Source: Anaerolineae bacterium (GTDB lineage Bacteria; Chloroflexota; Anaerolineae; DRVO01). From it: a stretch of DNA of 64,000 nt. The first letter of the stretch is position 1. The number at the start of each line of letters is the position of its first letter. The notes beneath the pieces were generated by a model. That model searched no databases, was not told the DNA's origin, and was given only the letters and a program-made list of their open reading frames with translations. Position numbers and translations under genes: made by a program. The DNA lies in the NCBI GenBank assembly GCA_040768685.1, contig JAXGMM010000001.1, positions 553,279 through 617,278 of the forward strand, written 5' to 3'. This document shows, one piece after another, positions 5,745-44,389 of this stretch.

Positions 5745-6737
<993 letters not shown>

Positions 6738-6850
6738 AGCGGACTCCTGATAGGTGACAAGGGATCAGTGGTTAGTGGTTAGTGGACAGTGGGGAGTGGC
6801 TAACAGCTTACTCTGCCGCCCACTGGCCACTGGTCACTATCCACTAGCCA

Positions 6851-7564
6851 CTACTCATAGCCGTAGTCGCGCATGGCCGGTTCGAGGAAGTCGAAGGTGT
6901 GCACGCCGGTGTCGGTGCGCCAGCGGCCTACCGCCTCGGGCCGCACCTTGATCTTGGCCAGGCGCATGCCCAGGTAGTCGCTCAAACGCTCGAGGGTCTC
7001 GTCCTGGCGGAGGACGAAGTCCTCGAAGCGGACGGTGATCCAGTTCTGCGGCTTGGGGGTCGTCCGTACCAGTAGGTCCTGGTAGAGCCAGGAGATCGCG
7101 CGCCGCCGGCGGATGTCATCGGTGAGCGGGTACTGGATGCCGAAGTCGCGCAGGTCGTCGGTCTTGTGCCCGGCCAGGATGCTGTCCCGCGGGTCGCGCA
7201 CCCAGAAGATGAACCTGGTCTCCGGCATGAGGCGGGCGATCCAAGGGAAGACGAGGGTAGTCTCGGGCAGCTTCCAGCCGCGGTTCTTGGCATCGCTGGC
7301 GAGGACGGAACGCAGGAAGACGCGCACCAGGTCGGTGAACTCCTTGGGGATGGCGCCGTCCAGGGCGCTCCAGTCCCAGGTGAGATCGCCGTTCCACTTT
7401 ACCTGGCGGGCGAGGACGTGGCAGGCATCGTACATGGCGAAGGGGGGCAGCAAGTCGCCGGAGCGATTCTGGGGTGCACCCATGTAGACGCCGCTGGCGG
7501 CGAGGGTATGCGACATGGCCCGGGTTCCCCCGTGCCCGCGCCCGATGACGGTGATCAGGCTCAT
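6851..7564 (-). CDS. PAPS-dependent sulfotransferase family protein (cytoplasmic)
   Basis: 5'-PSB loop VIGRGHGGTR near N-terminus and 3'-PB motif WVRDPRDSILAGH; no signal peptide. Confidence 0.7.
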   Translation of the reverse strand: MSLITVIGRGHGGTRAMSHTLAASGVYMGAPQNRSGDLLPPFAMYDACHVLARQVKWNGDLTWDWSALDGAIPKEFTDLVRVFLRSVLASDAKNRGWKLPETTLVFPWIARLMPETRFIFWVRDPRDSILAGHKTDDLRDFGIQYPLTDDIRRRRAISWLYQDLLVRTTPKPQNWITVRFEDFVLRQDETLERLSDYLGMRLAKIKVRPEAVGRWRTDTGVHTFDFLEPAMRDYGYE

Positions 7565-7685
7565 AGAGCAGTATCCTCAGACGGTGATGAGTGGATAGTG
7601 GACGGCGGCCAGCGGAGAGCCGAGCTCGCACGGGGGTGCGAACCCCTTGCGGAGAAACTCACCACTGGCCGCCGTCCACTGGTCA

Positions 7686-8696
7686 CTACAGCGTGACTAC
7701 CTCGCCGGTCTCCCAAGACTTGATGATGCCCTCAATGATGGTTTGGACGTGAAGGGCGTCCGCGCCGGAGGCATCGATCTGGTCGGGGGCGACGCCCTCG
7801 ACGTTCTGCTCGATCCAGCGGCCGATGCGGCTGCCGAACGTCTCGCCGAAGCTCATCATTCCGCCCACATAGTCGTAGGTGACAGTCTCACGGGAGAAGC
7901 GCGGGTAGAAGGTGAGGTGCTCGCAGGCGTCCACGAGGACAAAGCGCGCCTCGGAGCCCACCACCTCCAGTTCCTCGAGGCCATAGGAACCGCCGGCGTC
8001 GTAGGAGCCGGTGAGGTGGCCGAGGATGCCGTTCTTAAACAGCAGGTTCACCTGCACGTTGGACCAGCAGACGCGTCGGCCGCCGGGGCCGTCCTTGCGG
8101 GGGCCGCGCTTGAAGAAGGCCTGCACCTTCTCCACATCGCCGGCGTAGTAGCGCATCACGTCCAGCGAGTGGGGGTGGAGGGCGCGGATGTGGAACCAGG
8201 GCGAAGTCTCGTTGGGGTTGTTGATCCACATGCGCATGTTGACGATGTTGAGTTCGCCCAGCTTGCCTTTCTTGACCCACTGCTTGGCCATGAGGGCGGC
8301 GGGCGTGAAGCGGTGGTTGAGGTTGATGCCGTAGCGCAGCCCCTTGGCCTTCGCCAAGGCGACCATCTCGCGCGCCTCGTCCAGGTTGTTGGAGATGGGC
8401 TTCTCGCCCAGTACGGGGATGCCGGCGCCCAGCAACTGCATGGTGGGCTGGTAGTGGTCGCCGCCGTTCTCCTTACCCGCAGTGGTGACGCTGGCGGCGT
8501 CGATCTTCAGGCCGCCGGCGAGCATGTCGTCGACCGAGTAGAAGGCGCGGGCGCCGTACTTCTCGGCGGCGCGGTCGGCCTTCTCCTTGATGAGGTCGCA
8601 CACGGCGACGATCTCGGCGTCGGGGTGCTTCTGGTAGACGCCCGCGTGCGTATTGCCGATGTTGCCCATCCCTACGATGGCTACCTTCAGTGCCAT
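7686..8696 (-). CDS. Gfo/Idh/MocA family NAD(P)-dependent oxidoreductase
   Basis: MALKVAIVGMGNIGNTHAGVY Rossmann N-terminus; shares GEKPISN, LNHRFTPAA, SPWFxIxALHPH, LTGSYD blocks with 5745-6737; AGGAGAGG SD before ATG 8696. Confidence 0.85.
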   Translation of the reverse strand: MALKVAIVGMGNIGNTHAGVYQKHPDAEIVAVCDLIKEKADRAAEKYGARAFYSVDDMLAGGLKIDAASVTTAGKENGGDHYQPTMQLLGAGIPVLGEKPISNNLDEAREMVALAKAKGLRYGINLNHRFTPAALMAKQWVKKGKLGELNIVNMRMWINNPNETSPWFHIRALHPHSLDVMRYYAGDVEKVQAFFKRGPRKDGPGGRRVCWSNVQVNLLFKNGILGHLTGSYDAGGSYGLEELEVVGSEARFVLVDACEHLTFYPRFSRETVTYDYVGGMMSFGETFGSRIGRWIEQNVEGVAPDQIDASGADALHVQTIIEGIIKSWETGEVVTL

Positions 8697-8736: not shown

Positions 8737-8835
8737 GATACTCCGCTGTGCGGAGTATCTGTACCCCTCTCCGACACGGAGAGGGGTTCCGGAGCCCCCT
8801 TCCCGGCGCGGGAAGGGGGTTGGGGGTTAGGTCAC
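8737..8835. repeat. GC-rich triple-hairpin repeat element (copy A)
   Basis: three consecutive perfect hairpins GATACTCCGC-tgtg-CGGAGTATC, CCCCTCTCC-gacac-GGAGAGGGG, CCCCCTTCCC-ggcgc-GGGAAGGGGG followed by TTGGGGGTTAGGTCA; same core recurs at 33115, 36538, 41471. Confidence 0.6.
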
Positions 8836-10235
8836 TTTCTCGCCTCGGCCTGCAACTTGATGGCGGTCTGGATGCCGCCGATGTACAGCGTGTCGTAGGC
8901 CTGCTGCGACGTCTTGAAAGGGCCGACGCCTTCCTTCCCGTGCCAGTCGCCCTGGTGGTACATGGGGTTGGGCAGGCCCGTCTCGGCCTCGCGCTTGGCA
9001 ATGTAGGCGTGCATGCGCGCGCTCAGCGTCGCCACCATCTCCGGCTCGCTCTCGGCCAGGTTATGGTTCTCGCCCGGGTCCTGGATCAGGTTGTAGAGCT
9101 CCACCGGCGGCTTGAAGTGGAAGTCGGGCTCCAGCGCTTCTATCAGCTTCCATTCCGGGGTGCGCCAACCATGCTTGCGCATCCAGGTGCACTCGGTTAG
9201 GTAGATCTCGCTCTCGAAGGAGGGCGCCTCGCCGCGCACCAACTGCATGAGGCTCGGCCCATCCATCTGGTAGTCGCCCGGGTCGATCTCGGCCAGCTCG
9301 AGGATGGTGGGCAGCAGGTTCTTGTGCTGGTTGTAGCCGGGAACGCGCAGCCCCGCCGGCACCTTGCTCGGGTAGCGGATGATCAGCGGCACGTGCAGGG
9401 TGTTGTCGTAGATGCCGTGGTGATCAAAGTAGCAGTCGTGGTCGTAGAGCGTCTCGCCGTGATCGGAGTTGATGACCACGATGGTGTCGTCCAGGACGCC
9501 CAGGTCCTCCAGTTGGTGGAAGATGGTCTGGATACAGGCGTCCATGTAGGCCACCGAGCCGTCGTACTGGGCGATGATGTAGTCCTTGTCGGTGATTCCG
9601 GGCGGCATCCAGGAGGCGAAGAAGTCGCGGAAGGGCTTGAAGGCCATCACCGGGTCCATGGAACGGTTGTCCGGGTTGGTCTCGTTGCCGTGGTAGAAGG
9701 CCCGCTCGTAGGGGGGCGGCGGCAGGTAGGGAGAGTGCGGGTCCATGTGGCGCAGGAAGAGGAAGAAGGGCTTGCGCGACTTGGCCAGCCGGTCCAGCTC
9801 CGGCACGGCGACGTCGTTGAGGTTCTGCGCCTTGGGGCTGCGACCGTCGGCCCAGGAGCCCCAGCCGGGGAAGTCGATGTACTTGGCGAAGTCGCGCGCC
9901 GCCGCGTTGCCCTTGAAGCCGACGGAGGTGGTGTTGTAGCCGGCCTCGTTGCAGAACTGGGCCAGCGTCTTGGCCTCGGAGCGCATGGGGCCCTTGTGCC
10001 GCAGCGCCACCACCTGGGTGCCGAAGGCGTCGCGCCCGGTGAACATGCCGGCGTAGCCGCTGGTGGTGGGGATGTGAGGGCTGTAGGTGCGCTCAAACAG
10101 GGTTCCCCCCTGGGCGAAGCGGTCGATGTGGGGAGTGGTGAGGCGAGGGTAACCGTAGCACGACATGTGATCGGCCCGCAGGGAGTCGATCCCGAAAAGG
10201 AGAATGTTCGGTCTCCGACGGCGTCTCGGTGGCAT
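8832..10235 (-). CDS. sulfatase-like (alkaline phosphatase superfamily) hydrolase/transferase lacking the CxPxR motif
   Basis: NILLFGIDSLRADH and TPHIDRFAQGG align to sulfatase N-terminus but FGly position reads IPTTSGY (Thr-Thr instead of Cys-x-Pro); no signal peptide; SD GGAGG before ATG 10235. Confidence 0.8.
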   Translation of the reverse strand: MPPRRRRRPNILLFGIDSLRADHMSCYGYPRLTTPHIDRFAQGGTLFERTYSPHIPTTSGYAGMFTGRDAFGTQVVALRHKGPMRSEAKTLAQFCNEAGYNTTSVGFKGNAAARDFAKYIDFPGWGSWADGRSPKAQNLNDVAVPELDRLAKSRKPFFLFLRHMDPHSPYLPPPPYERAFYHGNETNPDNRSMDPVMAFKPFRDFFASWMPPGITDKDYIIAQYDGSVAYMDACIQTIFHQLEDLGVLDDTIVVINSDHGETLYDHDCYFDHHGIYDNTLHVPLIIRYPSKVPAGLRVPGYNQHKNLLPTILELAEIDPGDYQMDGPSLMQLVRGEAPSFESEIYLTECTWMRKHGWRTPEWKLIEALEPDFHFKPPVELYNLIQDPGENHNLAESEPEMVATLSARMHAYIAKREAETGLPNPMYHQGDWHGKEGVGPFKTSQQAYDTLYIGGIQTAIKLQAEARK

Positions 10236-19964: not shown

Positions 19965-21110
19965 TCACTTGTCCCGCGGTGCGACGTCGACCGCTTCCAG
20001 TGGAACGCCGGCGCGCACAGTCAGAGCGGCCACGAGCCGTCGGTGCAGCACTTCAGGGACGCCCTCACAGTCCTCCAGGGGGAATTCCCCATCCTCCTCG
20101 CGCAGCACGGCGACATCGGCGCAGGCGCCCTCCCGTAGGGTGCCGATCTCGTCCTGCATGCCCAGCATGGCGGCCGGGGCGGCGGTGGACAGCCGCACCA
20201 CCTCGGCGAGGTCCATGCCCAGGTGGAGGAACTTGCTCATCACCGACGTCATACCGAAGGCGGGCCCGTTGATGCTGCCGGTGTGGACGTCGGTGGAGAT
20301 GGAGTCGGGCGGGAAGCCTTGCTCCAATGCGTACCGCGCCACCTGCCAGGAGAAGCTGCCGGCGCCGTGGCCGACGTCGAATAGGACGCCGCGTTCCCGC
20401 GCTTCCCAGGCCTCCGGCCGGACTCTTCCCCCGTGGATGACCAGGCAGCCGGTGCGGCCCTTGTAGGCGTGGGTGATGATGTCGCCCGGGCGCATGATCG
20501 GGAGGATGGCCCAGAGGCCCGGAGGTGGAACGCCGATGTGGCACATGACCGGCAGGTTGACGGCCTCGCCAACCTCGCGCGCGATGCGAACCGGCGTTAG
20601 GTCGTTGGCGCCCACCTGCAGGCCGCTGGCCAGCACCTTGATGCCCTTGATGAGGTCGCGGTTGGCCTGCACCGTGTCGTAAGCGGCGTCGGCGTTGTAG
20701 TGGTGCACGTTCTCGTGCGCGCCGCTATAGGCGGTGAGCCCCGGTGTCGAGATGTTCAGGTAGGGCGCGATGCGAACGGTGGACGGCTCGATGAGGAACC
20801 GCCGGAAGCCGGCGAAGTTGCTCGCCCCGGCAGAGCCGGCGTCCACCCAGGTGGTGGCGCCGCTGCCGGGAGCGTGCTTGTCGGCCTCGAGATTAAGGTA
20901 CCCGGCGCCCCAGTACACGTGGGTATGCATGTCAATGAGGCCGGGCGTCACCAGGCAGCCGGATGCGTCGAAGGTGCGTTCCGCCTCGGCGACGATGGCG
21001 GTGGCCACCCGAGCGATGCGGCCGTCGAAGATGGCGACGTCGGCTCGTTCATTCCGCCCGGTCGACGGGTCAAGGACGCGGCCATTGCGGATAACGAGTT
21101 GATAGCGCAT
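19965..21110 (-). CDS. amidohydrolase family metallo-hydrolase (deacylase/dihydroorotase-like)
   Basis: GLIDMHTHVYWG metal-binding HxH, DVGHGAGSF, 381 aa; paralog of adjacent gene. Confidence 0.75.
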   Translation of the reverse strand: MRYQLVIRNGRVLDPSTGRNERADVAIFDGRIARVATAIVAEAERTFDASGCLVTPGLIDMHTHVYWGAGYLNLEADKHAPGSGATTWVDAGSAGASNFAGFRRFLIEPSTVRIAPYLNISTPGLTAYSGAHENVHHYNADAAYDTVQANRDLIKGIKVLASGLQVGANDLTPVRIAREVGEAVNLPVMCHIGVPPPGLWAILPIMRPGDIITHAYKGRTGCLVIHGGRVRPEAWEARERGVLFDVGHGAGSFSWQVARYALEQGFPPDSISTDVHTGSINGPAFGMTSVMSKFLHLGMDLAEVVRLSTAAPAAMLGMQDEIGTLREGACADVAVLREEDGEFPLEDCEGVPEVLHRRLVAALTVRAGVPLEAVDVAPRDK

Positions 21111-21196: not shown

Positions 21197-22315
21197 CTAG
21201 AGTCGCTCTCCGCTCCGGATGGTGTGCACCGGCACAAGCCTCTCGGTCACGATCTCCGTGACGCCCTCAGTGTCGGTGAGGGGGAAGCGACCGTCTTCTA
21301 AGCGCAGGATGCTCACATCGGCCTCGGCGCCCAAGCGCAGGTGACCCAGGGAGTCTGACATGCCAAGGGCGTGTGCGGGCGCGGTGGTCGCCAGACGCAC
21401 CACTTTGGGCAGCGAGAGGCCCAGGTGGAGGAACTTCGTCATCACCGACGGCAGGCTGATGGCCCCGCGCGCCACGCTGGCGACGTGGAGATCGGTGGAG
21501 ATCACGTCCGGCGGGAAGCCCTGGGCCAGCGCCGCCCGCGCCACGCTCCAGGAGAAGCTGCCCGCCCCATGCGCCACGTCGAAGAGCACCCCGCGCTGCC
21601 GGGCGGCCCACGCTTCGTCGCGCACCCGATCGCCCTCCACCAGCAGACACCCCTTCCGGCCCTTGTAGCAGTGGGTGATGATGTCGCCGCCGCGCATCAG
21701 GGGAAGCATGTCGCCCAGACCGGGCGGGGGCGCGCCGATGTGGCACATCACCGGCAGGCCGGTGGCCTTGCCCGCCTCTAGGGCGGTCCGCAACGGAATG
21801 AGGCCGCTGGGGCCGACGCGCATCGCGCAACTGAGCACTTTGATGCCGCGGATCAGGTCGCGGTTGTCCTCCACGGTGCGCCAGACGGAGTCCACATTCA
21901 GGTGCTCGATGACGCCGTGGACTACCTCCAAGCAGGTGAGGCCGGGCTCGGATATGTTGAGGAAAGGCACGATCCGAGCCCGAGCCGGCTCGATCACGTA
22001 GTGCCGGAAGGCGCGGAAGTTGGCCGATCCGGCACTGCCCGCGTCCACCCAGGTGGTGACGCCGGCCGCGGCCGCGTGGGCGTCGGCGTCGAGGCTCAGG
22101 TCGTCAAGACGGTGCGCTACGTGCGTGTGCAAGTCGACCAGGCCGGGAACGACCAGGCAGCCGGAGGCGTTCAGGCGATTGCTGGCCTCGGCCGCAGAGA
22201 GGTCCGGCGCGATGTCCGCCACCCGACCGTCGACTACAGCCACGTCGGCCACTTCATCGCGCCCTTGAGCCGGGTCGAGGACGCGCCCGCCGGTGATCAG
22301 GAGGTCGTAGCGCAT
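21197..22315 (-). CDS. amidohydrolase family metallo-hydrolase (paralog)
   Basis: MRYDLLITGGRVLDP, GLVDLHTHV, DVAHGAGSFSW; colinear similarity to 19965-21110. Confidence 0.75.
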   Translation of the reverse strand: MRYDLLITGGRVLDPAQGRDEVADVAVVDGRVADIAPDLSAAEASNRLNASGCLVVPGLVDLHTHVAHRLDDLSLDADAHAAAAGVTTWVDAGSAGSANFRAFRHYVIEPARARIVPFLNISEPGLTCLEVVHGVIEHLNVDSVWRTVEDNRDLIRGIKVLSCAMRVGPSGLIPLRTALEAGKATGLPVMCHIGAPPPGLGDMLPLMRGGDIITHCYKGRKGCLLVEGDRVRDEAWAARQRGVLFDVAHGAGSFSWSVARAALAQGFPPDVISTDLHVASVARGAISLPSVMTKFLHLGLSLPKVVRLATTAPAHALGMSDSLGHLRLGAEADVSILRLEDGRFPLTDTEGVTEIVTERLVPVHTIRSGERL

Positions 22316-32974: not shown

Positions 32975-33114
32975 GGCTGGTCCTGTGGGCGAATGTGAGG
33001 CCGGAGTATACCAGCCGCACCGTCCATTGGGGTAGGCGGGGCTGTGTGGGTTGGCATCTGCTCCGACCGGTACGGCCTGGTGGGCCCTGGCGGCCGGACC
33101 CGACCCCCGCTGGT

Positions 33115-33224
33115 GGTCTCCAAGAGCGAGACCACTGCTCCCTTTCCCCAGGAAGGAAGGGGCCGGAGAGACCGATTCCGTTTCCCCCTTCCCGCGTAGG
33201 GAAGGGGGCTAGGGGGTTGGGTTC
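33115..33224. repeat. GC-rich hairpin repeat element (copy B)
   Basis: GGTCTC-caagagc-GAGACC, then CCCCCTTCCC-gcgta-GGGAAGGGGG CTAGGGGGTTGGGTTC; near-identical to 36538-36726. Confidence 0.6.
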
Positions 33225-33354
33225 TTTCCCCGCAGGCACCCTCCGTCGGCTCCGACCACGACTAGGTTGGAGCACATGAGTCGGCTTATTGGCTATCGGC
33301 CCCGTGTTTACCGCCGCCATGCGCAATGCCGGTGCGCGCCAGGCCTATCTGCGG

Positions 33355-35557: not shown

Positions 35558-36496
35558 CTACGGCATGGCGGCTAGGTGTAGCGCCTCGTCGAACGTGGGG
35601 GCGCCTTCCATGGGACCCAGGCGAGTGACCGACAGAGCGCCCACGGCGTTGGCAAACCGAGCCACGCGGGGCAGGTCCCAGCCCCTCAGTAAGCCCACTA
35701 GGAAGGCGGCGCCGTAGCAGTCGCCGGCCCCCGTTGGATCCACCTCGGTGACGGCGAAAGAGGAAACGGCGAACTCTTGGTCGCCGCAGTAGACCGCGCT
35801 GCCGGCCGCGCCTCGCTTCAGGGCCACGATGCGTCCCTGGCCGGCCAGAGCGCGGGCGGCCGCTTCATCGCTCTCCGCCCCGGTGAGCATGCGCGCCTCC
35901 GCTCCCGAAGGCAGTACGACGTCGGCCGCCTCCAGCACCGGTGCACACACTTCCCGCACCCGCTCCAGCCCAAGCAGTTCGGGGCGCAAGTTGGGGTCCA
36001 GGCTGACGCGGGCGCCGGCGGCTTTGGCCAGACGCACGGCCCGATAGCAGGCCTCCCGCGACGTGTCGCTGAGGGCGAGCGCGGAGCCCATGACGTGCAG
36101 GAAGCGACTGCCCTGGAAGTACGGCTCCGGTACGTCCGCGGGGGCCAGTGTGCCCGCGGCGGCGTGGCGGAGGTGGAAGAGGAAGCGGCGACTGCCGTCC
36201 TGGAAGTAGGCCACGAAGGCACAGGCGGTGGTGTGGGTCGTGGAGACGCGGAGACAGCTGAGATCCAGGCCGTCCTCGGCCAGGCGGCGGTGCACGCAGA
36301 GTCCGAAGTCGTCGTCGCCGACCACGCCGATGAAGCCGGTGCGCGCGCCCAGACGGGCGGCAGCGTCGGCGAAGATGGCGGGCGCGCCACTGGGGAAGGG
36401 ACCGACGAAGGGCCCGGGCCGGTCGAGCGCCAGCTCGCGTTCCGGCCGCATGATCTCCACCAAGGCTTCACCGATGGCGATGATGTCGAGGGGCAT
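35558..36496 (-). CDS. PfkB family carbohydrate kinase
   Basis: DIIAIGEALVE N-terminal GG-like region and DPTGAGDCYGAAF anion-hole motif; start at internal ATG 36496. Confidence 0.8.
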   Translation of the reverse strand: MPLDIIAIGEALVEIMRPERELALDRPGPFVGPFPSGAPAIFADAAARLGARTGFIGVVGDDDFGLCVHRRLAEDGLDLSCLRVSTTHTTACAFVAYFQDGSRRFLFHLRHAAAGTLAPADVPEPYFQGSRFLHVMGSALALSDTSREACYRAVRLAKAAGARVSLDPNLRPELLGLERVREVCAPVLEAADVVLPSGAEARMLTGAESDEAAARALAGQGRIVALKRGAAGSAVYCGDQEFAVSSFAVTEVDPTGAGDCYGAAFLVGLLRGWDLPRVARFANAVGALSVTRLGPMEGAPTFDEALHLAAMP

Positions 36497-36537
36497 GCCG
36501 TCTCCTGTTAGGGCGCGGAACCTGACCTCGCTCGTGG

Positions 36538-36726
36538 TCTCAAAGAGCGAAACTACCGCTCCCCTTCCCCAACAAGGGAGGGGGTCCGGAAGCCGCGCCG
36601 GTGCCGCAGAGGCCAATTCCGGTTCCCCCTTCCCGCGCAGGGAAGAGTCGGGCTGGGCCTTCGTGCCACTGTACAGTCCCCGGTTCCCCCTTCCGCGTCG
36701 GGAAGGGGGCTAGGGGGTTAGGTCAG
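36538..36726. repeat. GC-rich hairpin repeat element (copy C, internally duplicated)
   Basis: GGTCTCAAAGAGCGAAACTACCGCTCCCCTTCCCC...; two units CCGGTTCCCCCTTCCCGCGCAGGGAAG and CCGGTTCCCCCTTCCGCGTCGGGAAGGGGGCTAGGGGGTTAGGTCA. Confidence 0.6.
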
Positions 36727-39995: not shown

Positions 39996-42290
39996 CTACT
40001 GAGCGGTGAGGGGGAGCTCGACCCGGGCAGCGCCGTCGGCGAGCGGCAGGGCCTGGCCGCCCTCCAGAGCGTACATGCCGATCCTGAGCGCGACCACCGG
40101 GGCGCCGGCGGGCAGCAGCAGTGCGTGCCGGTCCTCAACCTCCTCGCCGGGCGCCCAGGTATCGGTGGGGCGCGTCCAGCCGGCGGGCACGGCGTCGCTC
40201 TGGGCGATGACGGCGCCGCTCGAGTCCAGCGCATGCACGAAGACCTTGTAGGAACGCGAGGGCGTCGCCTTGGCGCGCCAGTGCAAGCGCACGAGAACGG
40301 TGTCGCCTTCGACGGCGAAGGCCGTCTCCCTGAGGGTGATGCCGTCCGCGAACTCGGCATGAACACCGGACGCGGTCATGGCCTCGGGCGCTAAGGCGTA
40401 GAGGGTCAGGCGACGCTCGCCGGCGCTCTCCTGAAGGGCGCGGTAGCCGATTCCTGCCAGCCAGTCCCCAGTGGCTGAAGAGAATCCCTGGTCGAGGACC
40501 CAGAAGCGGCTGTACTCGGCTGCCAGCCGGTCCGCTACATCGTGCGGATAATCCGGCAGGGAGCAGGTAGCCAATCGGCCCCGGTAGCGATCAGAGACCA
40601 GCGTGGCGTCGCCGGGCGTGGTGGTGATGATCACATCGCCGGCCCTCTCCCGCTGCGCAATGGTCGCCAAGAGGCCGTCGAGAGGGAGCGAGCCGGCCGC
40701 GTGGGAGCGGGCGAGCGTGAAGGCGAGAGAACCTACCACCGCGAGGGCGGCGACGGCGGTGAGGATGGTTCCGTGGCCGGCCAGGGTGGAGCGAACCGCC
40801 ATGACCGACAGGACGAGGCCGGCAAGCAGCGCCCCCAAGCTCAGAGCGTCGACGGTACCGGCGGACGCCCAGGCGAAGTCCAGTGTGCCGAGGCCTAGGT
40901 GCGACCACTGGCCGACCAGGGGAGAGAAGCGCGGCGCCCAGAAGGTGCGCGGGTCGAACAGGGGCAGGCCGGTGCTGAGCAAGCTGTCCTGGAAGGGAGC
41001 AAAGTGGACGAGCGAGCCGGGTAGGTTCAGGACGAAGCCGACGGCCGCCAGTGCCGGCAGGCCGCTTCGCCAATGGCCGCCGCGCTCCCAGATGGAAGCT
41101 AGGCCGAGGGCGAGGAACGGCATGGCGGGGGCGAGGAAGCGGGGCCCCCAGCAGTACCCCCCGTGCCACATGAACCACTTGCCGTAGATGAGAACGTGGG
41201 CGGCGGCGATGGCCAGTGCCCCCCAGGCGACGTCCCGGTGTCGCCGCGTCAGGTCGCGGAAGCCGAAGAGGGCGAGGGCGAGCACGGGAGCGTACAGGAA
41301 GAGGCCGCGGCCGGGGCTGATGAGCAGACCGCTCACACCCTCCACGAGGTTGGCGCTGAACGACTCCTGGGCCAGGTAGCCGCTGGTGAGGGGGTTGCCG
41401 AAGCGAAGGTAGTTGAACCAGCCGGAGAGGGCCACGAACACGCCGAGGCCAACGGAGAAGGCGAGGATGTGGGGCAGACCTCTCCCCCGATCTCTCTCCC
41501 ACGGGGAGAGGGGAGCCTCTCCACCCCCTTCCTTCCCAGGGAAGGGGGCCAGGGGGTGGGGCAGACCTCTCCCCCGACCCCTCTCCCACGGTGAAAGGGG
41601 GGCCTCTCCACCCCCTTCCTTCTCAGGGAAGGGGGCCAGGGGGTTAGGTCTACCTACCCAGATCGCCAGGGCAAAGACGGGCGTCAGCGCGAGAGAGGTG
41701 GTGCGGGTGAGAGCGGCGAAGCCCAGACCGGCGCCCACACCGAGGGCCGCCGCCAGCGATGGCCGCCGGCGGAAGGCCAGCCAGGCAGCGAACGCGGCCA
41801 GCAGGGCCAGGCCGGTCAGGGGATCGCTGAAGTCGTGCTTGCCGTAGGGCAGCAGGGGCGTGGCGAGGGAAAGCGCCAAGGCGGCGGCCAACGAGGCTCC
41901 GGTCGAGTAGCCGAGAAGCGCCAAGCAGCGGTAGAGCAGCCAGCCGGTGGCGGCGGCCACCAAGGGGCTTGCCAGCAGTGCCGCCTGCAGGAGGCCGATC
42001 GCCCCTGCCCGCAGGCCGAGCCAGGCCAGGGGCAGGGCGGCGACGGTCTGGCCGAGGCCCTTGCGCGAGTAGAGGTCGCCGTCGGGGCCGAAGGTGCCTT
42101 GCTGCAGGCCCATCCAGCGATAGGCGTTCATGTCCAGGTCGCCGCGGCGGGCGAGGCTCTCGGTGGTGGCCAGCATGGCTAGGCCATCGCTGGAGTGGGG
42201 TACGCCGCTGAAGTTCAGGAATTGGACGGCGAGCAGGAAGACGAACAGCGCCAGCCCCACCCGGCGCCGGGTGCAGCGGTCGGCGCTCAT
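39996..42290 (-). CDS. GT-C fold membrane glycosyltransferase (ArnT/PMT-like) with C-terminal beta-rich domain; carries in-frame repeat insertion
   Basis: N-terminal FLNFSGVPHSSDGLAMLATTESLARRGDLDMNAYRW loop like GT39/GT83; about 13 TM; C-terminal domain similar to those of 25899-28250 and 42287-44389; start ATG 42290 overlapping upstream stop (ATGA). Confidence 0.7.
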   Translation of the reverse strand: MSADRCTRRRVGLALFVFLLAVQFLNFSGVPHSSDGLAMLATTESLARRGDLDMNAYRWMGLQQGTFGPDGDLYSRKGLGQTVAALPLAWLGLRAGAIGLLQAALLASPLVAAATGWLLYRCLALLGYSTGASLAAALALSLATPLLPYGKHDFSDPLTGLALLAAFAAWLAFRRRPSLAAALGVGAGLGFAALTRTTSLALTPVFALAIWVGRPNPLAPFPEKEGGGEAPLSPWERGRGRGLPHPLAPFPGKEGGGEAPLSPWERDRGRGLPHILAFSVGLGVFVALSGWFNYLRFGNPLTSGYLAQESFSANLVEGVSGLLISPGRGLFLYAPVLALALFGFRDLTRRHRDVAWGALAIAAAHVLIYGKWFMWHGGYCWGPRFLAPAMPFLALGLASIWERGGHWRSGLPALAAVGFVLNLPGSLVHFAPFQDSLLSTGLPLFDPRTFWAPRFSPLVGQWSHLGLGTLDFAWASAGTVDALSLGALLAGLVLSVMAVRSTLAGHGTILTAVAALAVVGSLAFTLARSHAAGSLPLDGLLATIAQRERAGDVIITTTPGDATLVSDRYRGRLATCSLPDYPHDVADRLAAEYSRFWVLDQGFSSATGDWLAGIGYRALQESAGERRLTLYALAPEAMTASGVHAEFADGITLRETAFAVEGDTVLVRLHWRAKATPSRSYKVFVHALDSSGAVIAQSDAVPAGWTRPTDTWAPGEEVEDRHALLLPAGAPVVALRIGMYALEGGQALPLADGAARVELPLTAQ
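41471..41643. repeat. tandem duplicated hairpin repeat (2 x about 87 nt) inserted in-frame within CDS
   Basis: two units GGGGCAGACCTCTCCCCCGA..CTCTCCCACGG.GA.AGGGG..CCTCTCCACCCCCTTCCTT.CAGGGAAGGGGGCCAGGGGGT; encodes PLAPFPEKEGGGEAPLSPWERGRGRGLPH twice. Confidence 0.65.
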
Positions 42291-44389
42291 CGCGGCACGA
42301 CTTGGGGGGCAGGGCCGACGGTCACGTCGGCGAGGACGCACGAGTCGCTGCCGGCGGCCGTAAGCAGACGATCGCCGGTCTCCGGATCGTACACGCCCAG
42401 GAGCAACCGGTACGTCTCGGGCGAGGACCCACCGAGGTCGATAGCGTGCCGATCCAGGACGTACCCGTTGCTCCACGCCGGGACGCTGTCGCTCTGCGCC
42501 AGGGGGCGGAGGTCCGGGCCTGCCAGATGGACGAAGACGGAGAGACCGTTGGCTACCGCGCTGCCCTGCCAGACGAGGGTCAGATTGAGGCGGTCGTCCC
42601 GGATCGTGGACTCCCAGCCCACCAACGTGGTCGCATCCGCGAACCGTACCTGCGCCGCCCTAAGGGCCGAGCGCGGGATCCAGTGGCTGAGGCTGTACGC
42701 GGCGAACTCGGTCTCGCCCACGAGATAGGCCAGGCGGCCAAGCGAGTCGAGGACGGCTGTCGACAGGCCGGAGTCGTCGCCGGATGCGAGCACGAGCCAG
42801 ATGCCTTTCGGCTGCAGGTCGACGACTTGCCGGTCGAGATGGGACGCGAGGTCGCCATCGGGGGCGCGGTCGTCCACGGTGCGGAGCGCCAGGCGGCGGT
42901 GCAAGTGGGGGTAGAAGCGCCCCAGGTCCGGCTGGCGGAGGAAAAGCAGCGTCTCCCCCGGTTCACTCACTTGGCCGAGGTACTCGATAGCGGGACGTGC
43001 CGGCTCGACCTGGTAGCGGGAGCGTGCGTAGGCGTCCAACAGCCGCCAGGAGAGCAGAGCCAGGGCGATGCCGGCCGCCGCGCCGGCCCACGGCGCCAGT
43101 CGGCGCAGATGGGCGGTGGGCCAGGGCTTGTCGAGATAGTCCAGGAGCAGGCCGCCGGCCAGGAGGGCGAGGAGACCGGTGCGCGCGGTGGTGGTGAGCA
43201 CGAGGAGCCAGGTCTCGCCGGGCAGCAGGATGAAGAATCCATGCGATTCCAGGTAGTTGAAGAAGGTGAGGCTGAGGGCCAACACCACTCCCCGCCAGTC
43301 GGGCCAGAGCACGGCGACGAAGGGCAGAAGGTAGAGCAGGTACTGCGGGCTCCAGCCTTTGCTGAGCAGGAAGAGCAGGGTGAAGCTCAGGCCGGTGAAG
43401 GCAACGGCGGTGCGGGGGCGGTCCCAGCGGGCGCGGGCCAGGTACAGCCGCACGTAGACCGCGACCAGGACCAAGCTCAACAGGCCGTAGGGCACGCGGC
43501 CGTCCCAGGCGGGGCCGCTCAGGGCGGCCAGGTCGCGGACGTCGGCGGGGGCGACGCCGAAGCCGTAGTAGCCGTCCAGCAGCGCCCAGATCGTCTGCCA
43601 GGGCGGCCGGATGCGCTGGATGTCCAGCGGGGCCAGTAGCAGACGCGGGTTGTGCGCCAGGAAGGGCGCGGCGACGGCGATGACGGCGGCCCCACCCGCG
43701 ACTAGGTAGCGCAGGCCGCGGCCCCAGTGAAACCCGCGCCATCGCCGGGGCAACTCCGGCGCCAGTCGCCTGAGGCCCACGGGGAACACCAGGGCGGGGA
43801 GCAGCTTCGTCATTACGCCCAGGCCGCCGGCCACCCCGGCTAACAGCCAGCGCTGCTCCAGGACCAGCCAGAGCGCGAGCATGACCAGGAAGGTGGGCAG
43901 GCTGTCGAAGTGGGCCTGGGCGGTGTAGGCGGGCAGGAAGAGGAGGGCGTAGAACACAGCCGAGCGGAGGGCGACCGCTCGCCCCCGCATCCGGTCAGCG
44001 AGAGCGTACACCAGGGCGAGCGTGCCCGCCTCGGCGGCGATGAGCACCGAGCCGAGCAGGAGGTCGAAGATCAGTTGCGGCTGCTCCCAGGGGGGCAGGA
44101 GGAGGGAGAGCCGATAGAGCCCGACCAGCAGCCAGGGGAAGATGGGTGGGTAAGGGCTCCAGATATTGACATAAGGGTACAGGCCGCGGTCGGAGAGGGC
44201 GGCGAACTCACGGTAGTAGTAGTAGTCGGAGAAGTCGGCGAGGAAGCCGCCCGGCCGCAGCAGCCACAGCGAACCGAGACGGAAGGCGACCAAGAGAGTC
44301 AGAAGCAGAAGGAAGTCGCGGCGGTGATTGTCGGCGGCGGTCCTGGGGTTCACGGCGCCACTGTACAAGCGTGAGCGGGCCGCTGGCAA
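42287..44389 (-). CDS. GT-C fold membrane glycosyltransferase (DUF2029/GT87-like) with C-terminal beta-rich domain
   Basis: multiple TM, Tyr-rich N-terminus YYYYREFAALSDRGLYPYVNIWSPYPP, MTKLLPALVFP; C-terminal LTLVWQGSAVANGLSVFVHLAG...LLLGVYDPETGDRLL related to other two GT-C genes; start codon uncertain (TTG 44389). Confidence 0.65.
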   Translation of the reverse strand: MPAARSRLYSGAVNPRTAADNHRRDFLLLLTLLVAFRLGSLWLLRPGGFLADFSDYYYYREFAALSDRGLYPYVNIWSPYPPIFPWLLVGLYRLSLLLPPWEQPQLIFDLLLGSVLIAAEAGTLALVYALADRMRGRAVALRSAVFYALLFLPAYTAQAHFDSLPTFLVMLALWLVLEQRWLLAGVAGGLGVMTKLLPALVFPVGLRRLAPELPRRWRGFHWGRGLRYLVAGGAAVIAVAAPFLAHNPRLLLAPLDIQRIRPPWQTIWALLDGYYGFGVAPADVRDLAALSGPAWDGRVPYGLLSLVLVAVYVRLYLARARWDRPRTAVAFTGLSFTLLFLLSKGWSPQYLLYLLPFVAVLWPDWRGVVLALSLTFFNYLESHGFFILLPGETWLLVLTTTARTGLLALLAGGLLLDYLDKPWPTAHLRRLAPWAGAAAGIALALLSWRLLDAYARSRYQVEPARPAIEYLGQVSEPGETLLFLRQPDLGRFYPHLHRRLALRTVDDRAPDGDLASHLDRQVVDLQPKGIWLVLASGDDSGLSTAVLDSLGRLAYLVGETEFAAYSLSHWIPRSALRAAQVRFADATTLVGWESTIRDDRLNLTLVWQGSAVANGLSVFVHLAGPDLRPLAQSDSVPAWSNGYVLDRHAIDLGGSSPETYRLLLGVYDPETGDRLLTAAGSDSCVLADVTVGPAPQVVPR

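Follow-up and report, generated by a model that had tools for sequence, protein, structure and literature searches.

How the gene for a membrane enzyme can hold two consecutive copies of a dispersed palindromic repeat and still be read as a single protein is the question raised by gene 39996-42290 of a 64,000-nucleotide (nt) stretch of DNA from an Anaerolineae bacterium (GenBank assembly GCA_040768685.1, contig JAXGMM010000001.1, forward-strand positions 553,279 to 617,278; hereafter the window, in whose coordinates positions are given). This minus-strand gene encodes a polytopic membrane protein of 764 amino acids (aa), which has a GT-C glycosyltransferase fold and a C-terminal beta-rich domain, and the repeat is a double-hairpin element that also occurs between genes of the same window and in the genomes of many phyla. 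We consider it quite probable that a selfish repeat, resembling the Rickettsia palindromic elements (RPEs) in its behaviour, inserted once into this gene, was read through and tolerated in a permissive loop, and was later duplicated in frame.

Two head-to-tail units of 87 nt lie inside the intact gene, and Tandem Repeats Finder describes positions 41469-41644 as a repeat of period 87 with 2.0 copies, 93% matches and a score of 310. On the minus strand, unit A (PLAPFPEKEGGGEAPLSPWERGRGRGLPH; residues 217-245, nt 41556-41642) precedes unit B (PLAPFPGKEGGGEAPLSPWERDRGRGLPH; residues 246-274, nt 41469-41555), and the two are identical at 81 of 87 nt and 27 of 29 aa, with four of the six nt differences being synonymous. 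The initial annotation had described two in-frame units of about 87 nt that encode the same peptide twice; the units and their frame are as it stated, and the identity of the two peptides is only approximate. Together with the codons for RPN, the units make up a repeat-derived segment, presumed to be translated, that spans residues 214-274 in the codon listing (41469..41651, minus strand) and includes the peptide GGGEAPLSPWER. The minus-strand frame is uninterrupted from 42476 to 39996, and the start at 42290 gives a 764-aa product that is 100% identical to database protein P0001, for which there are 476 homologs, the named ones coming mostly from metagenome-assembled genomes (MAGs) of Anaerolineae or other Chloroflexota. 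The flanks on both sides of the insert align with these homologs in one frame.

The element from which both units derive is a dispersed, GC-rich repeat whose complete copies measure 82-96 nt, the longer ones having a larger spacer. Its consensus starts with (R)ACCYCTCCCC and 2-3 further nt, continues with hairpin 1 (CCCCTCYCC, a 4-5-nt loop and GGRGAGGGG), a variable spacer of ~8-20 nt and hairpin 2 (arms CCCCCTTCCC and GGGAAGGGGG, the consensus left arm also being written CTCCCCCTTCCC), and ends, 3 nt after hairpin 2, with GGGGGTTAGGT(Y), the tail being GGGGGTTAGGTC. The ends are terminal inverted repeats, in that RACCYCTCCCC pairs with GGGGGTTAGGTY in an imperfect outer stem with two conserved internal mismatches. 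Analysis of 51 copies with RNAalifold yielded this outer stem plus the two hairpins, a three-way-junction palindrome in whose hairpin 1 compensatory changes from C-G to U-A were seen in 19 and 5 sequences.

Within the gene, a complete 89-nt copy occupies 41563..41651 on the plus strand (nhmmer: 41565-41649, model positions 1-88, E 3e-17). It begins with AGACCTCTCCCCC, has hairpin 1 at 41578-41600 with a degenerate right arm, the spacer GCCTCTCCA, hairpin 2 (CCCCCTTCC/GGGAAGGGGG) at 41611-41635 and the 3' tail CCAGGGGGTTAGGTCT, and it encodes RPN plus most of unit A, whose C-terminal LPH lies in 41556-41564. The second copy, at 41476..41557 (+) (nhmmer: 41478-41557, model positions 1-83, E 1.5e-14), has the same 5' end and both hairpins, with duplicated host flank (TGGGGCAG) in place of the 3' terminus TTAGGTCT; most of unit B is encoded here, its C-terminal LPH lying in 41469-41477. 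An alignment of copies shows hairpin 1 to be degenerate in both units. The other members of the family that nhmmer found in the window lie outside the long open reading frames (ORFs) taken as genes and are treated as intergenic: a copy from 8762 to ~8832-8833 (+) that adjoins a sulfatase gene, a copy at 33141..33222 (+) with a variant hairpin 1 and the end GGGGGTTGGGT, and a half element (hairpin 2 plus the GGGGGTTAGGTC tail) from 36683 to ~36723-36724 (+). A hairpin-2-like half module is found at ~36621-36645, and ORF 35558..36616 ends just upstream of it and of the half element.

Both nhmmer and the copy alignment thus bear out the earlier proposal that the in-gene units and the intergenic copies are one hairpin-repeat family, and sub-motifs of the repeat are strongly over-represented in the window relative to dinucleotide shuffles (one has 3 matches where 0.03 are expected, another 2 against 0.00). 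The possibility that the segment is a native Pro/Gly-rich linker was ruled out, as its DNA matches the intergenic copies and the family is found in both orientations. At gathering thresholds no Rfam 15 family matched anywhere in the window, at E<=1 Rfam gave only chance-level matches to eukaryotic miRNA and scaRNA models, and a search of the window for tRNA and tmRNA genes returned none.

The assignment of the host protein to the GT-C glycosyltransferases, which the initial annotation had also made, is supported by its predicted fold and not by membership in a curated sequence family. The AlphaFold2 (AF2) model of the 764-aa protein has a mean predicted local distance difference test score (pLDDT) of 84 and a predicted template modelling score (pTM) of 0.85, and the best 35 Protein Data Bank (PDB) matches returned by Foldseek are all GT-C enzymes at probability 1.00, led by ArnT (5ezm, E 1.9e-7); the PDB matches also include EmbA/B/C, AglB, STT3, PglB, ALG12/9/3, Pmt4 and DPY19. 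No Pfam family matched the protein at E<=0.01, a profile of 21 homologs found no match among PDB sequences, and PF02366 or PF13231 is precomputed on some homologs of the protein. In a GT-C fold, conserved acidic residues are to be expected in the first external loop. In the 21 homologs H32-S33-S34-D35-G36 and D53 are invariant and lie between helix 1 and the next membrane helix, and the homolog alignment has an invariant LYxRK just ahead of the helix that follows the first external loop; on this pattern of conservation, D35 and D53 may have a catalytic role.

In the AF2 model the insert is flanked by helix 197-212 and by another, which starts in unit B (residue 263) and continues as membrane helix 275-297, so that it adds a segment rich in Pro, Gly, Glu and also Arg to a loop between transmembrane helices, as had been claimed; residues 217-257 have pLDDT values <50. 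When Lys and Arg (K+R) were counted per loop over the 21 homologs, the mean was 5.2 for the 26 residues of the insert loop, 2-3 for each of the other basic regions of 7-10 residues (the N-terminus, 173-179, 344-353 and 402-408) and <=1 for the alternating short loops. Since the loop belongs to the K+R-rich set, the positive-inside rule places this disordered, basic segment probably in the cytoplasm. The most conserved loops (26-78, 149-157, 298-334, 376-389 and 428-481) would be external on this topology, and the active site would be expected among them. The same topology needs helix 79-94 to be juxtamembrane and not spanning, which would agree with the structure of ArnT.

An alignment of 21 proteins (A1; the window protein and 20 homologs) shows that the insert occupies a length-variable loop, after ..LTRTTSLALTPVFALAIWVG and before ..(RRRLPH)LLAF, and that 19 of the 20 homologs do not have it. 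The remaining homolog, P0002 (63% identical by BLASTP, 67% in the alignment), has a single unit, RPNPLAPFPKKEGGGEASLSAWERGWGRGL, whose position matches to the codon and after which comes RRRFRH; P0003 (63% by BLASTP, 66% in the alignment) and all more distant aligned homologs are without it. The expectation that relatives would lack the segment therefore holds for 19 homologs and fails for one related lineage, in which the segment is plainly a member of the family. The contigs that encode P0002 and P0003 (L001 and L002, respectively) are syntenic with the window, having the same order of a gene for a 690-700-aa protein of unknown function, the glycosyltransferase gene and a xanthine-uracil permease gene, so the genes compared are true orthologs. 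The copy in L001 is, as DNA, an entire element (AGACCTAACCCCC...GGGGGAGAGGTCT). Its spacer, GCCTCTCCA, and its loop variants are common only to L001 and the window units, being absent from 48 other aligned copies and from the window's own other copies. These private features favour one ancestral insertion, and a single gain appears more likely than two gains at one site.

Other sequences are found in the same loop or the same gene. P0007, P0008 and P0009 each have unrelated extra sequence in the loop homologous to the insert site (A1, columns ~250-330), that of P0007 being ~70 aa long and that of P0008 containing ..VILSEAKNPSRKRGW.., which we take to resemble the translation of another widespread repeat. 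The presence of unrelated sequence in three homologs indicates that the loop is permissive, and it seems to be an insertion hotspot. The glycosyltransferase gene of L001 (863-3187) has, in addition, a second in-frame copy of the family at 2288-2362, consisting of hairpin 2 and the tail on the gene strand; it encodes ..REGSFRPPLPAQGRGQGGLG.. in a short loop between the last two membrane helices and has no counterpart in the window protein.

The anatomy of the two units suggests how the tandem arose. In the orientation of the gene, unit A starts with the element terminus (AGACCTAA-CCCCCTGG) and unit B starts with GTCTGCCCCA-CCCCCTGG; unit B is without the first 8 nt of the element (AGACCTAA) and has instead ~9 nt repeated from the host flank (GCCCCAC, coding for LPH), the counterpart of RRRLPH in P0003. 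The duplicated block therefore consists of ~78 nt of element and ~9 nt of host DNA, with a 2-nt microhomology (AC) at both junctions. Because host flank stands in unit B where an element terminus would otherwise be, the tandem is a local duplication, of the microhomology or slippage type, that arose from a single, earlier insertion, and its likely cause would be replication slippage promoted by the hairpins. Two separate transpositions as the source of the tandem are ruled out by the same junction. The description of the locus as a tandem insertion of two units thus has to be revised, the ortholog in L001 also having one unit. The unit length of exactly 29 codons had been read as a sign of selection on the frame; given that complete copies vary from 82 to 96 nt, the 87-nt period shows only that in-frame events survive, as no other length could in an essential part of the gene. 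Nor does an open frame call for special selection, as 54-85% of copies are stop-free in four of the six frames and the frame used in the host gene is open in 85%.

The same element has entered genes elsewhere. A word-indexed peptide search with the 61-aa segment found nothing, and phmmer against 1.84 billion representative sequences found only the protein itself and one weak match; the peptide route was defeated by composition filters and by the short length of the segment, so the census was made on DNA, by scanning one genome of each species for exact copies of the 3' motif GGGAAGGGGGNNNGGGGGTTAGGT. Exact matches were found in at least 120 genome stretches from many phyla. Among the matches listed are Cyanobacteria (Nostoc, Calothrix, Anabaena, Scytonema, Coleofasciculus and others, several of them isolates or complete genomes), Chloroflexota (Anaerolineae, Dehalococcoidia, Chloroflexia, Thermomicrobiales and Ktedonobacterales), Planctomycetota (Gemmata sp. 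IIL30 and Gemmataceae MAGs), Armatimonadota, Desulfonema (with Desulfobacterota also named), Bipolaricaulota/Acetothermia, Abditibacteriaceae and others. The 5' half of the element is conserved in spite of lying outside the query, and it has lineage-specific, compensated variants of hairpin 1, such as CCTCTCTCC/GGAGAGAGG in Nostocales and CCCCTCCCC/GGGGAGGGG in Planctomycetota. The motif stands out as a GC island in the AT-rich genomes of Nostocales, and it is also found in 21 stretches of IMG/VR viral contigs (L125-L145), which makes carriage by phages possible.

In a sample comprising the window, L001, L002 and 120 genome loci, an nhmmer profile found 161 non-overlapping copies, 35 of which lie within an open frame that extends 80 aa or more in both directions; some of these frames, in high-GC genomes, may be spurious. 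Nine host ORFs were scanned against Pfam and eight had hits, with Pfam domains flanking or enclosing the insert in most of the nine. The insert lies inside the NB-ARC domain of an NB-ARC/TPR protein, inside PSD1 of a PSCyt2/PSD1 protein, inside AMP-binding_C of a nonribosomal peptide synthetase (NRPS) and in a linker of a polyketide synthase (PKS); further hosts are a peptidase U32, a pseudouridine synthase, a caspase-family protein (Peptidase_C14) and a UvrD helicase, whose insert is ahead of the first domain and perhaps upstream of the real start. In the ninth ORF, from L097, no Pfam domain was found. One recurring frame, RPNPLTPFPxREGGxxxPLSxxERGxGRG, is that used in the window, and two others recur as well (DLTPQPPSLxGKGExxSPLLAGEGLGxRS and NLSPNLSPxRREALNSPPSLxGKGAGGLG). 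The U32 peptidase gene of Nostocales (L059 4280-6907, minus strand; L062; L089; Nostoc and Anabaena) has an orthologous in-frame copy in three genomes. In Anabaena minutissima this copy has lost hairpin 1 and has 15 nt deleted, and is still in frame, and the Nostoc insert has changed mostly non-synonymously; taken together, these copies resemble a time series of palindrome decay inside a gene. Since this decay has stayed in frame, the DNA, once inserted, seems to evolve like any other coding sequence under weak constraint.

The window contains a second point of contact between the element and a gene. The sulfatase gene 8832-10235 ends in ...ARK-TGA, where TGA is the complement of 8832-8834, and the GA of this stop codon comes from the element terminus GACC (T|GACCTAACC...), the ..GGTC end of the element on the plus strand. 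The element end does, therefore, supply the stop codon, as had been noted, to the extent of two of its three bases. Two relatives without the element (L123 and L124, 91-93% identical in protein) end in ..ARK-TAG at the same codon position, which indicates that the element entered at, or within, the stop codon and restored a stop. Truncation or extension of the sulfatase by the repeat was ruled out, as the homologs are equally long (464-469 aa) and stop at the same codon. The regeneration of a stop is a filter on which insertions survive and not co-evolution of the element with coding sequence, a phrase of the initial annotation that is too strong also in view of the decay of hairpin 1 in both units and the loss of the palindrome in the Nostocales in-gene copy. 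Downstream of the sulfatase gene, L123 (4405-4626) and L124 (3913-4146) have an unrelated inverted repeat of ~190 nt (CGCAGAGAGCGCAGAG ... CTCTGCGCTCTCTGCG), so that this 3' intergenic spacer is occupied by different palindromic elements in different lineages.

The events that best account for the locus would start with a single insertion of the non-autonomous, GC-rich double-hairpin repeat into the variable, basic and probably cytoplasmic loop of the GT-C protein, likely in an ancestor common to the window and L001 lineages. The insertion would have been read through as ~29 extra residues rich in Pro, Gly, Glu and Arg, and tolerated because the element is nearly stop-free and the loop is long and variable and, on the topology proposed here, separated by the membrane from the conserved, presumably external loops. 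A tandem duplication of 87 nt, by slippage aided by the hairpins, would have followed in the window lineage alone and would have survived thanks to its in-frame length. The segment would now be evolving, presumably neutrally, as a disordered linker, with hairpin 1 degenerate in both units. Several results weigh against this account. The aa identities (67%, 67% and 72%) give the tree (window,(L001,L002)), on which a single ancestral insertion would require a clean loss in L002, and a search of the L002 loop for a remnant of the element gave an alignment score no better than that of shuffles. Signs of a mobilising agent are also missing from the sample: all-against-all clustering of 1254 ORFs from the 8-kb flanks of 120 loci found no recurrent transposase-like ORF, the recurrent families being histidine kinases, ABC proteins, methyltransferases, WD40 proteins and the like; 61 of 65 complete copies have no direct repeat of at least 2 nt at their boundaries (shifting these by 1-2 nt gave only chance-level 2-nt matches); and no pair of ends 0.5-3 kb apart, such as an autonomous parent would have, was present in the 8-kb-flank sample. 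That the element moves is thus suggested by presence and absence alone, at the glycosyltransferase loop (window and L001 versus L002) and at the sulfatase 3' end (window versus L123 and L124).

The tree, the clean L002 loop, the unrelated sequences in the loops of P0007, P0008 and P0009 and the second family copy in the L001 gene would all be accommodated if the element had entered the same codon twice, in site-directed fashion, in the window and L001 lineages, with L002 never having had it. Two independent insertions of this kind are nonetheless rather unlikely, as they do not explain why the window and L001 have the private spacer and loop variants in common or why the N-terminal-side junction is identical, and no conserved target sequence flanks the family, the palindrome often running a few lineage-specific bases past its core. 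Unlikely as well, and somewhat more so, is a domesticated insert, in which the loop or its hairpins would have acquired a function, as a flexible, basic cytoplasmic tether that stands in for the native RRR motif, as a segment that binds a partner or as a site of translational pausing, so that selection maintains it and favoured the duplication. The insert has been kept in two lineages only 67% identical in protein, and each window unit matches the L001 unit at 68 of 78 nt (87%), compared with 72% for the gene as a whole; this and the four synonymous changes among the six unit differences hint at some constraint, a further point against tolerated read-through. The 87% is, however, within the gene's own distribution (below the 95th percentile, 89.7%, of its 29-codon windows). 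The window protein is without the native RRR(L/F), and the Arg-rich, element-encoded end RGRGRG stands before LPH where other homologs have RRR(L/F)(P/R)H, from which one might speculate that RGRGRG replaces the native motif functionally; the mRNA-strand fold (-120 kcal/mol, z = -2.8) would suit a pause site or functional hairpin. Against a function, L002 and all more distant homologs manage without the insert, disorder is predicted for the segment, both units have a degenerate hairpin 1, and the insert of the Nostoc U32 peptidase has changed mostly non-synonymously and has suffered an in-frame deletion. Least probable, and by our assessment very improbable, is that assembly generated the duplication, or even the insert as a whole, as an artefact of the repeat family; the sequence is repetitive, GC-rich and hairpin-forming, and no other assembly of this species turned up (BLASTP gives 63% identity for the best ortholog), but the units differ at 6 of 87 positions, the frame and flanking homology are intact, the element recurs at this codon in an independent ENA assembly (L001), and the contig of the host gene is 2.09 Mb long.

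Annotation of this protein should keep the 58-residue repeat-derived loop, without calling it a frameshift, pseudogene or misassembly, and the loop can be marked as permissive for engineering. On the reading preferred here, the locus provides a two-step example of the conversion of selfish palindromic DNA into protein, by insertion and in-frame duplication followed by palindrome decay, and the survey suggests that the same element becomes coding in many phyla, including in NRPS and PKS modules. Such repeats affect gene calling in GC-rich MAGs, in which they also create spurious ORFs, and homology searches, in which low-complexity inserts break alignments. They also bear on the question of what mobilises small palindromic repeats without a transposase.

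The surroundings of the gene contain further repeats and paralogs. Upstream, the stop codon (42287-42289) of a 700-aa gene at 42287-44389 (minus strand) directly adjoins the glycosyltransferase start codon at 42290; this gene has no Pfam hit, its C-terminal region (..LLGVYDPETGDRLL..) resembles that of the GT-C gene (..RIGMYALEGGQALPL..), and it is probably a tandem paralogous membrane glycosyltransferase. In the ortholog contigs L001 and L002, a PMT_2 gene lies downstream of the permease gene. Direct repeats at 20274-20968 and 21476-22170 (~72% identical, spacing 1202 nt) correspond to adjacent paralogous genes, 19965-21110 and 21197-22315, both on the minus strand. The family copies within 33100-33225 and 36525-36724 have in common a larger composite unit, opened by a further hairpin (GGTCTCcaagagcGAGACC) and a variant one (CCCTTTCCCC/GGAAGGGG), which suggests a genome-specific mosaic repeat of several hairpin modules. 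A different intergenic palindrome, with heptamers AGTGGTT/AGTGGAC facing CCACTGG/CCACTAG, occurs at 6763-6853 and 7579-7687, flanking paralogous oxidoreductase-like genes (5745-6737 and 7686-8696), and resembles the STRR heptamers of cyanobacteria.

Comparison with known systems places the element among, and apart from, several classes of small repeat. Repetitive extragenic palindromic (REP) sequences, their bacterial interspersed mosaic elements (BIMEs) and the REPIN doublets are essentially extragenic in the case of REPs and are mobilised by REP-associated tyrosine transposases (RAYTs) (PMC3116915, PMC3733652). The element is like them in having hairpin modules that occur singly, in pairs and in mosaic clusters, with half elements common and target-site duplications absent; it differs in that its consensus has no GTAG or CGTC tag and up to ~1/5 of the sampled copies are inside long ORFs, and no RAYT-like neighbour was present among the recurrent ORF families of the 8-kb flanks. 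With MITEs, the miniature inverted-repeat transposable elements, it has terminal inverted repeats in common, whereas target-site duplications and a related autonomous insertion sequence (IS) with the same ends are missing in this sample.

The Nostocales form has its core enclosed by inverted repeats of 20 nt (TTTTCACGGTATCTGGAAAA ... TTTTCCACATAACGTGAAAA). This form resembles the nested cyanobacterial arrangement of small dispersed repeats (SDRs) and MITEs that Elhai and colleagues in 2008 and Wolk and colleagues in 2010 are said to have described (Nezha; MITEa-e of Anabaena PCC 7120), and it may be one of the repeats already named there. Those families were reportedly described within cyanobacteria and not in Chloroflexota or Planctomycetota. 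Subterminal hairpins that differ between the two ends, small size and the absence of terminal target duplication are traits of the PATEs (palindrome-associated transposable elements), which derive from IS200/IS605. The element appears to have all three in common with them; it differs in having no conserved target tetranucleotide in the 5' flank, no TnpA or TnpB found nearby and, in the 8-kb-flank sample, no ends that lie a gene's length apart. Some Anabaena MITEs carry ORFs (PMC10969869). A search of the accessible literature by sequence strings and keywords found no description of the element.

The closest parallel is with the RPEs, reportedly the subject of work by Ogata and colleagues in 2000. 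RPEs are palindromic repeats found between genes and in frame in many unrelated genes, where they are read as conserved extra peptides that are reported to be compatible with fold and function (PMC10969869). The element is likewise a short palindromic repeat that encodes no transposase and is found both between genes and in frame in unrelated, domain-bearing genes (NB-ARC, U32 peptidase, PseudoU synthase, PSD1, NRPS, PKS, caspase and GT-C). Its sequence looks unrelated to those of RPEs, from which it is set apart by composition and length, being GC-rich, 82-96 nt long against ~100-150 nt, and built of two specific hairpins with tails of G/C runs; in addition, RPEs are confined to Rickettsia, whereas the exact motif of the element occurs in many phyla and has here undergone tandem duplication. 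By its behaviour the element is closest to an RPE, and membership in the RPE family is not claimed. It is a tentative idea, and to us a somewhat doubtful one, that a single family, found under no name in Rfam 15 or in the literature searched and spread across Cyanobacteria, Chloroflexota, Planctomycetota, Armatimonadota, Desulfobacterota and others and repeatedly turned into coding sequence, constitutes a pan-bacterial counterpart of the RPEs; if it does, the two mismatches kept in the outer stem and the lineage-specific compensatory changes of hairpin 1 would point to a trans-acting enzyme or a factor of the host by which DNA or RNA is recognised in its folded state.

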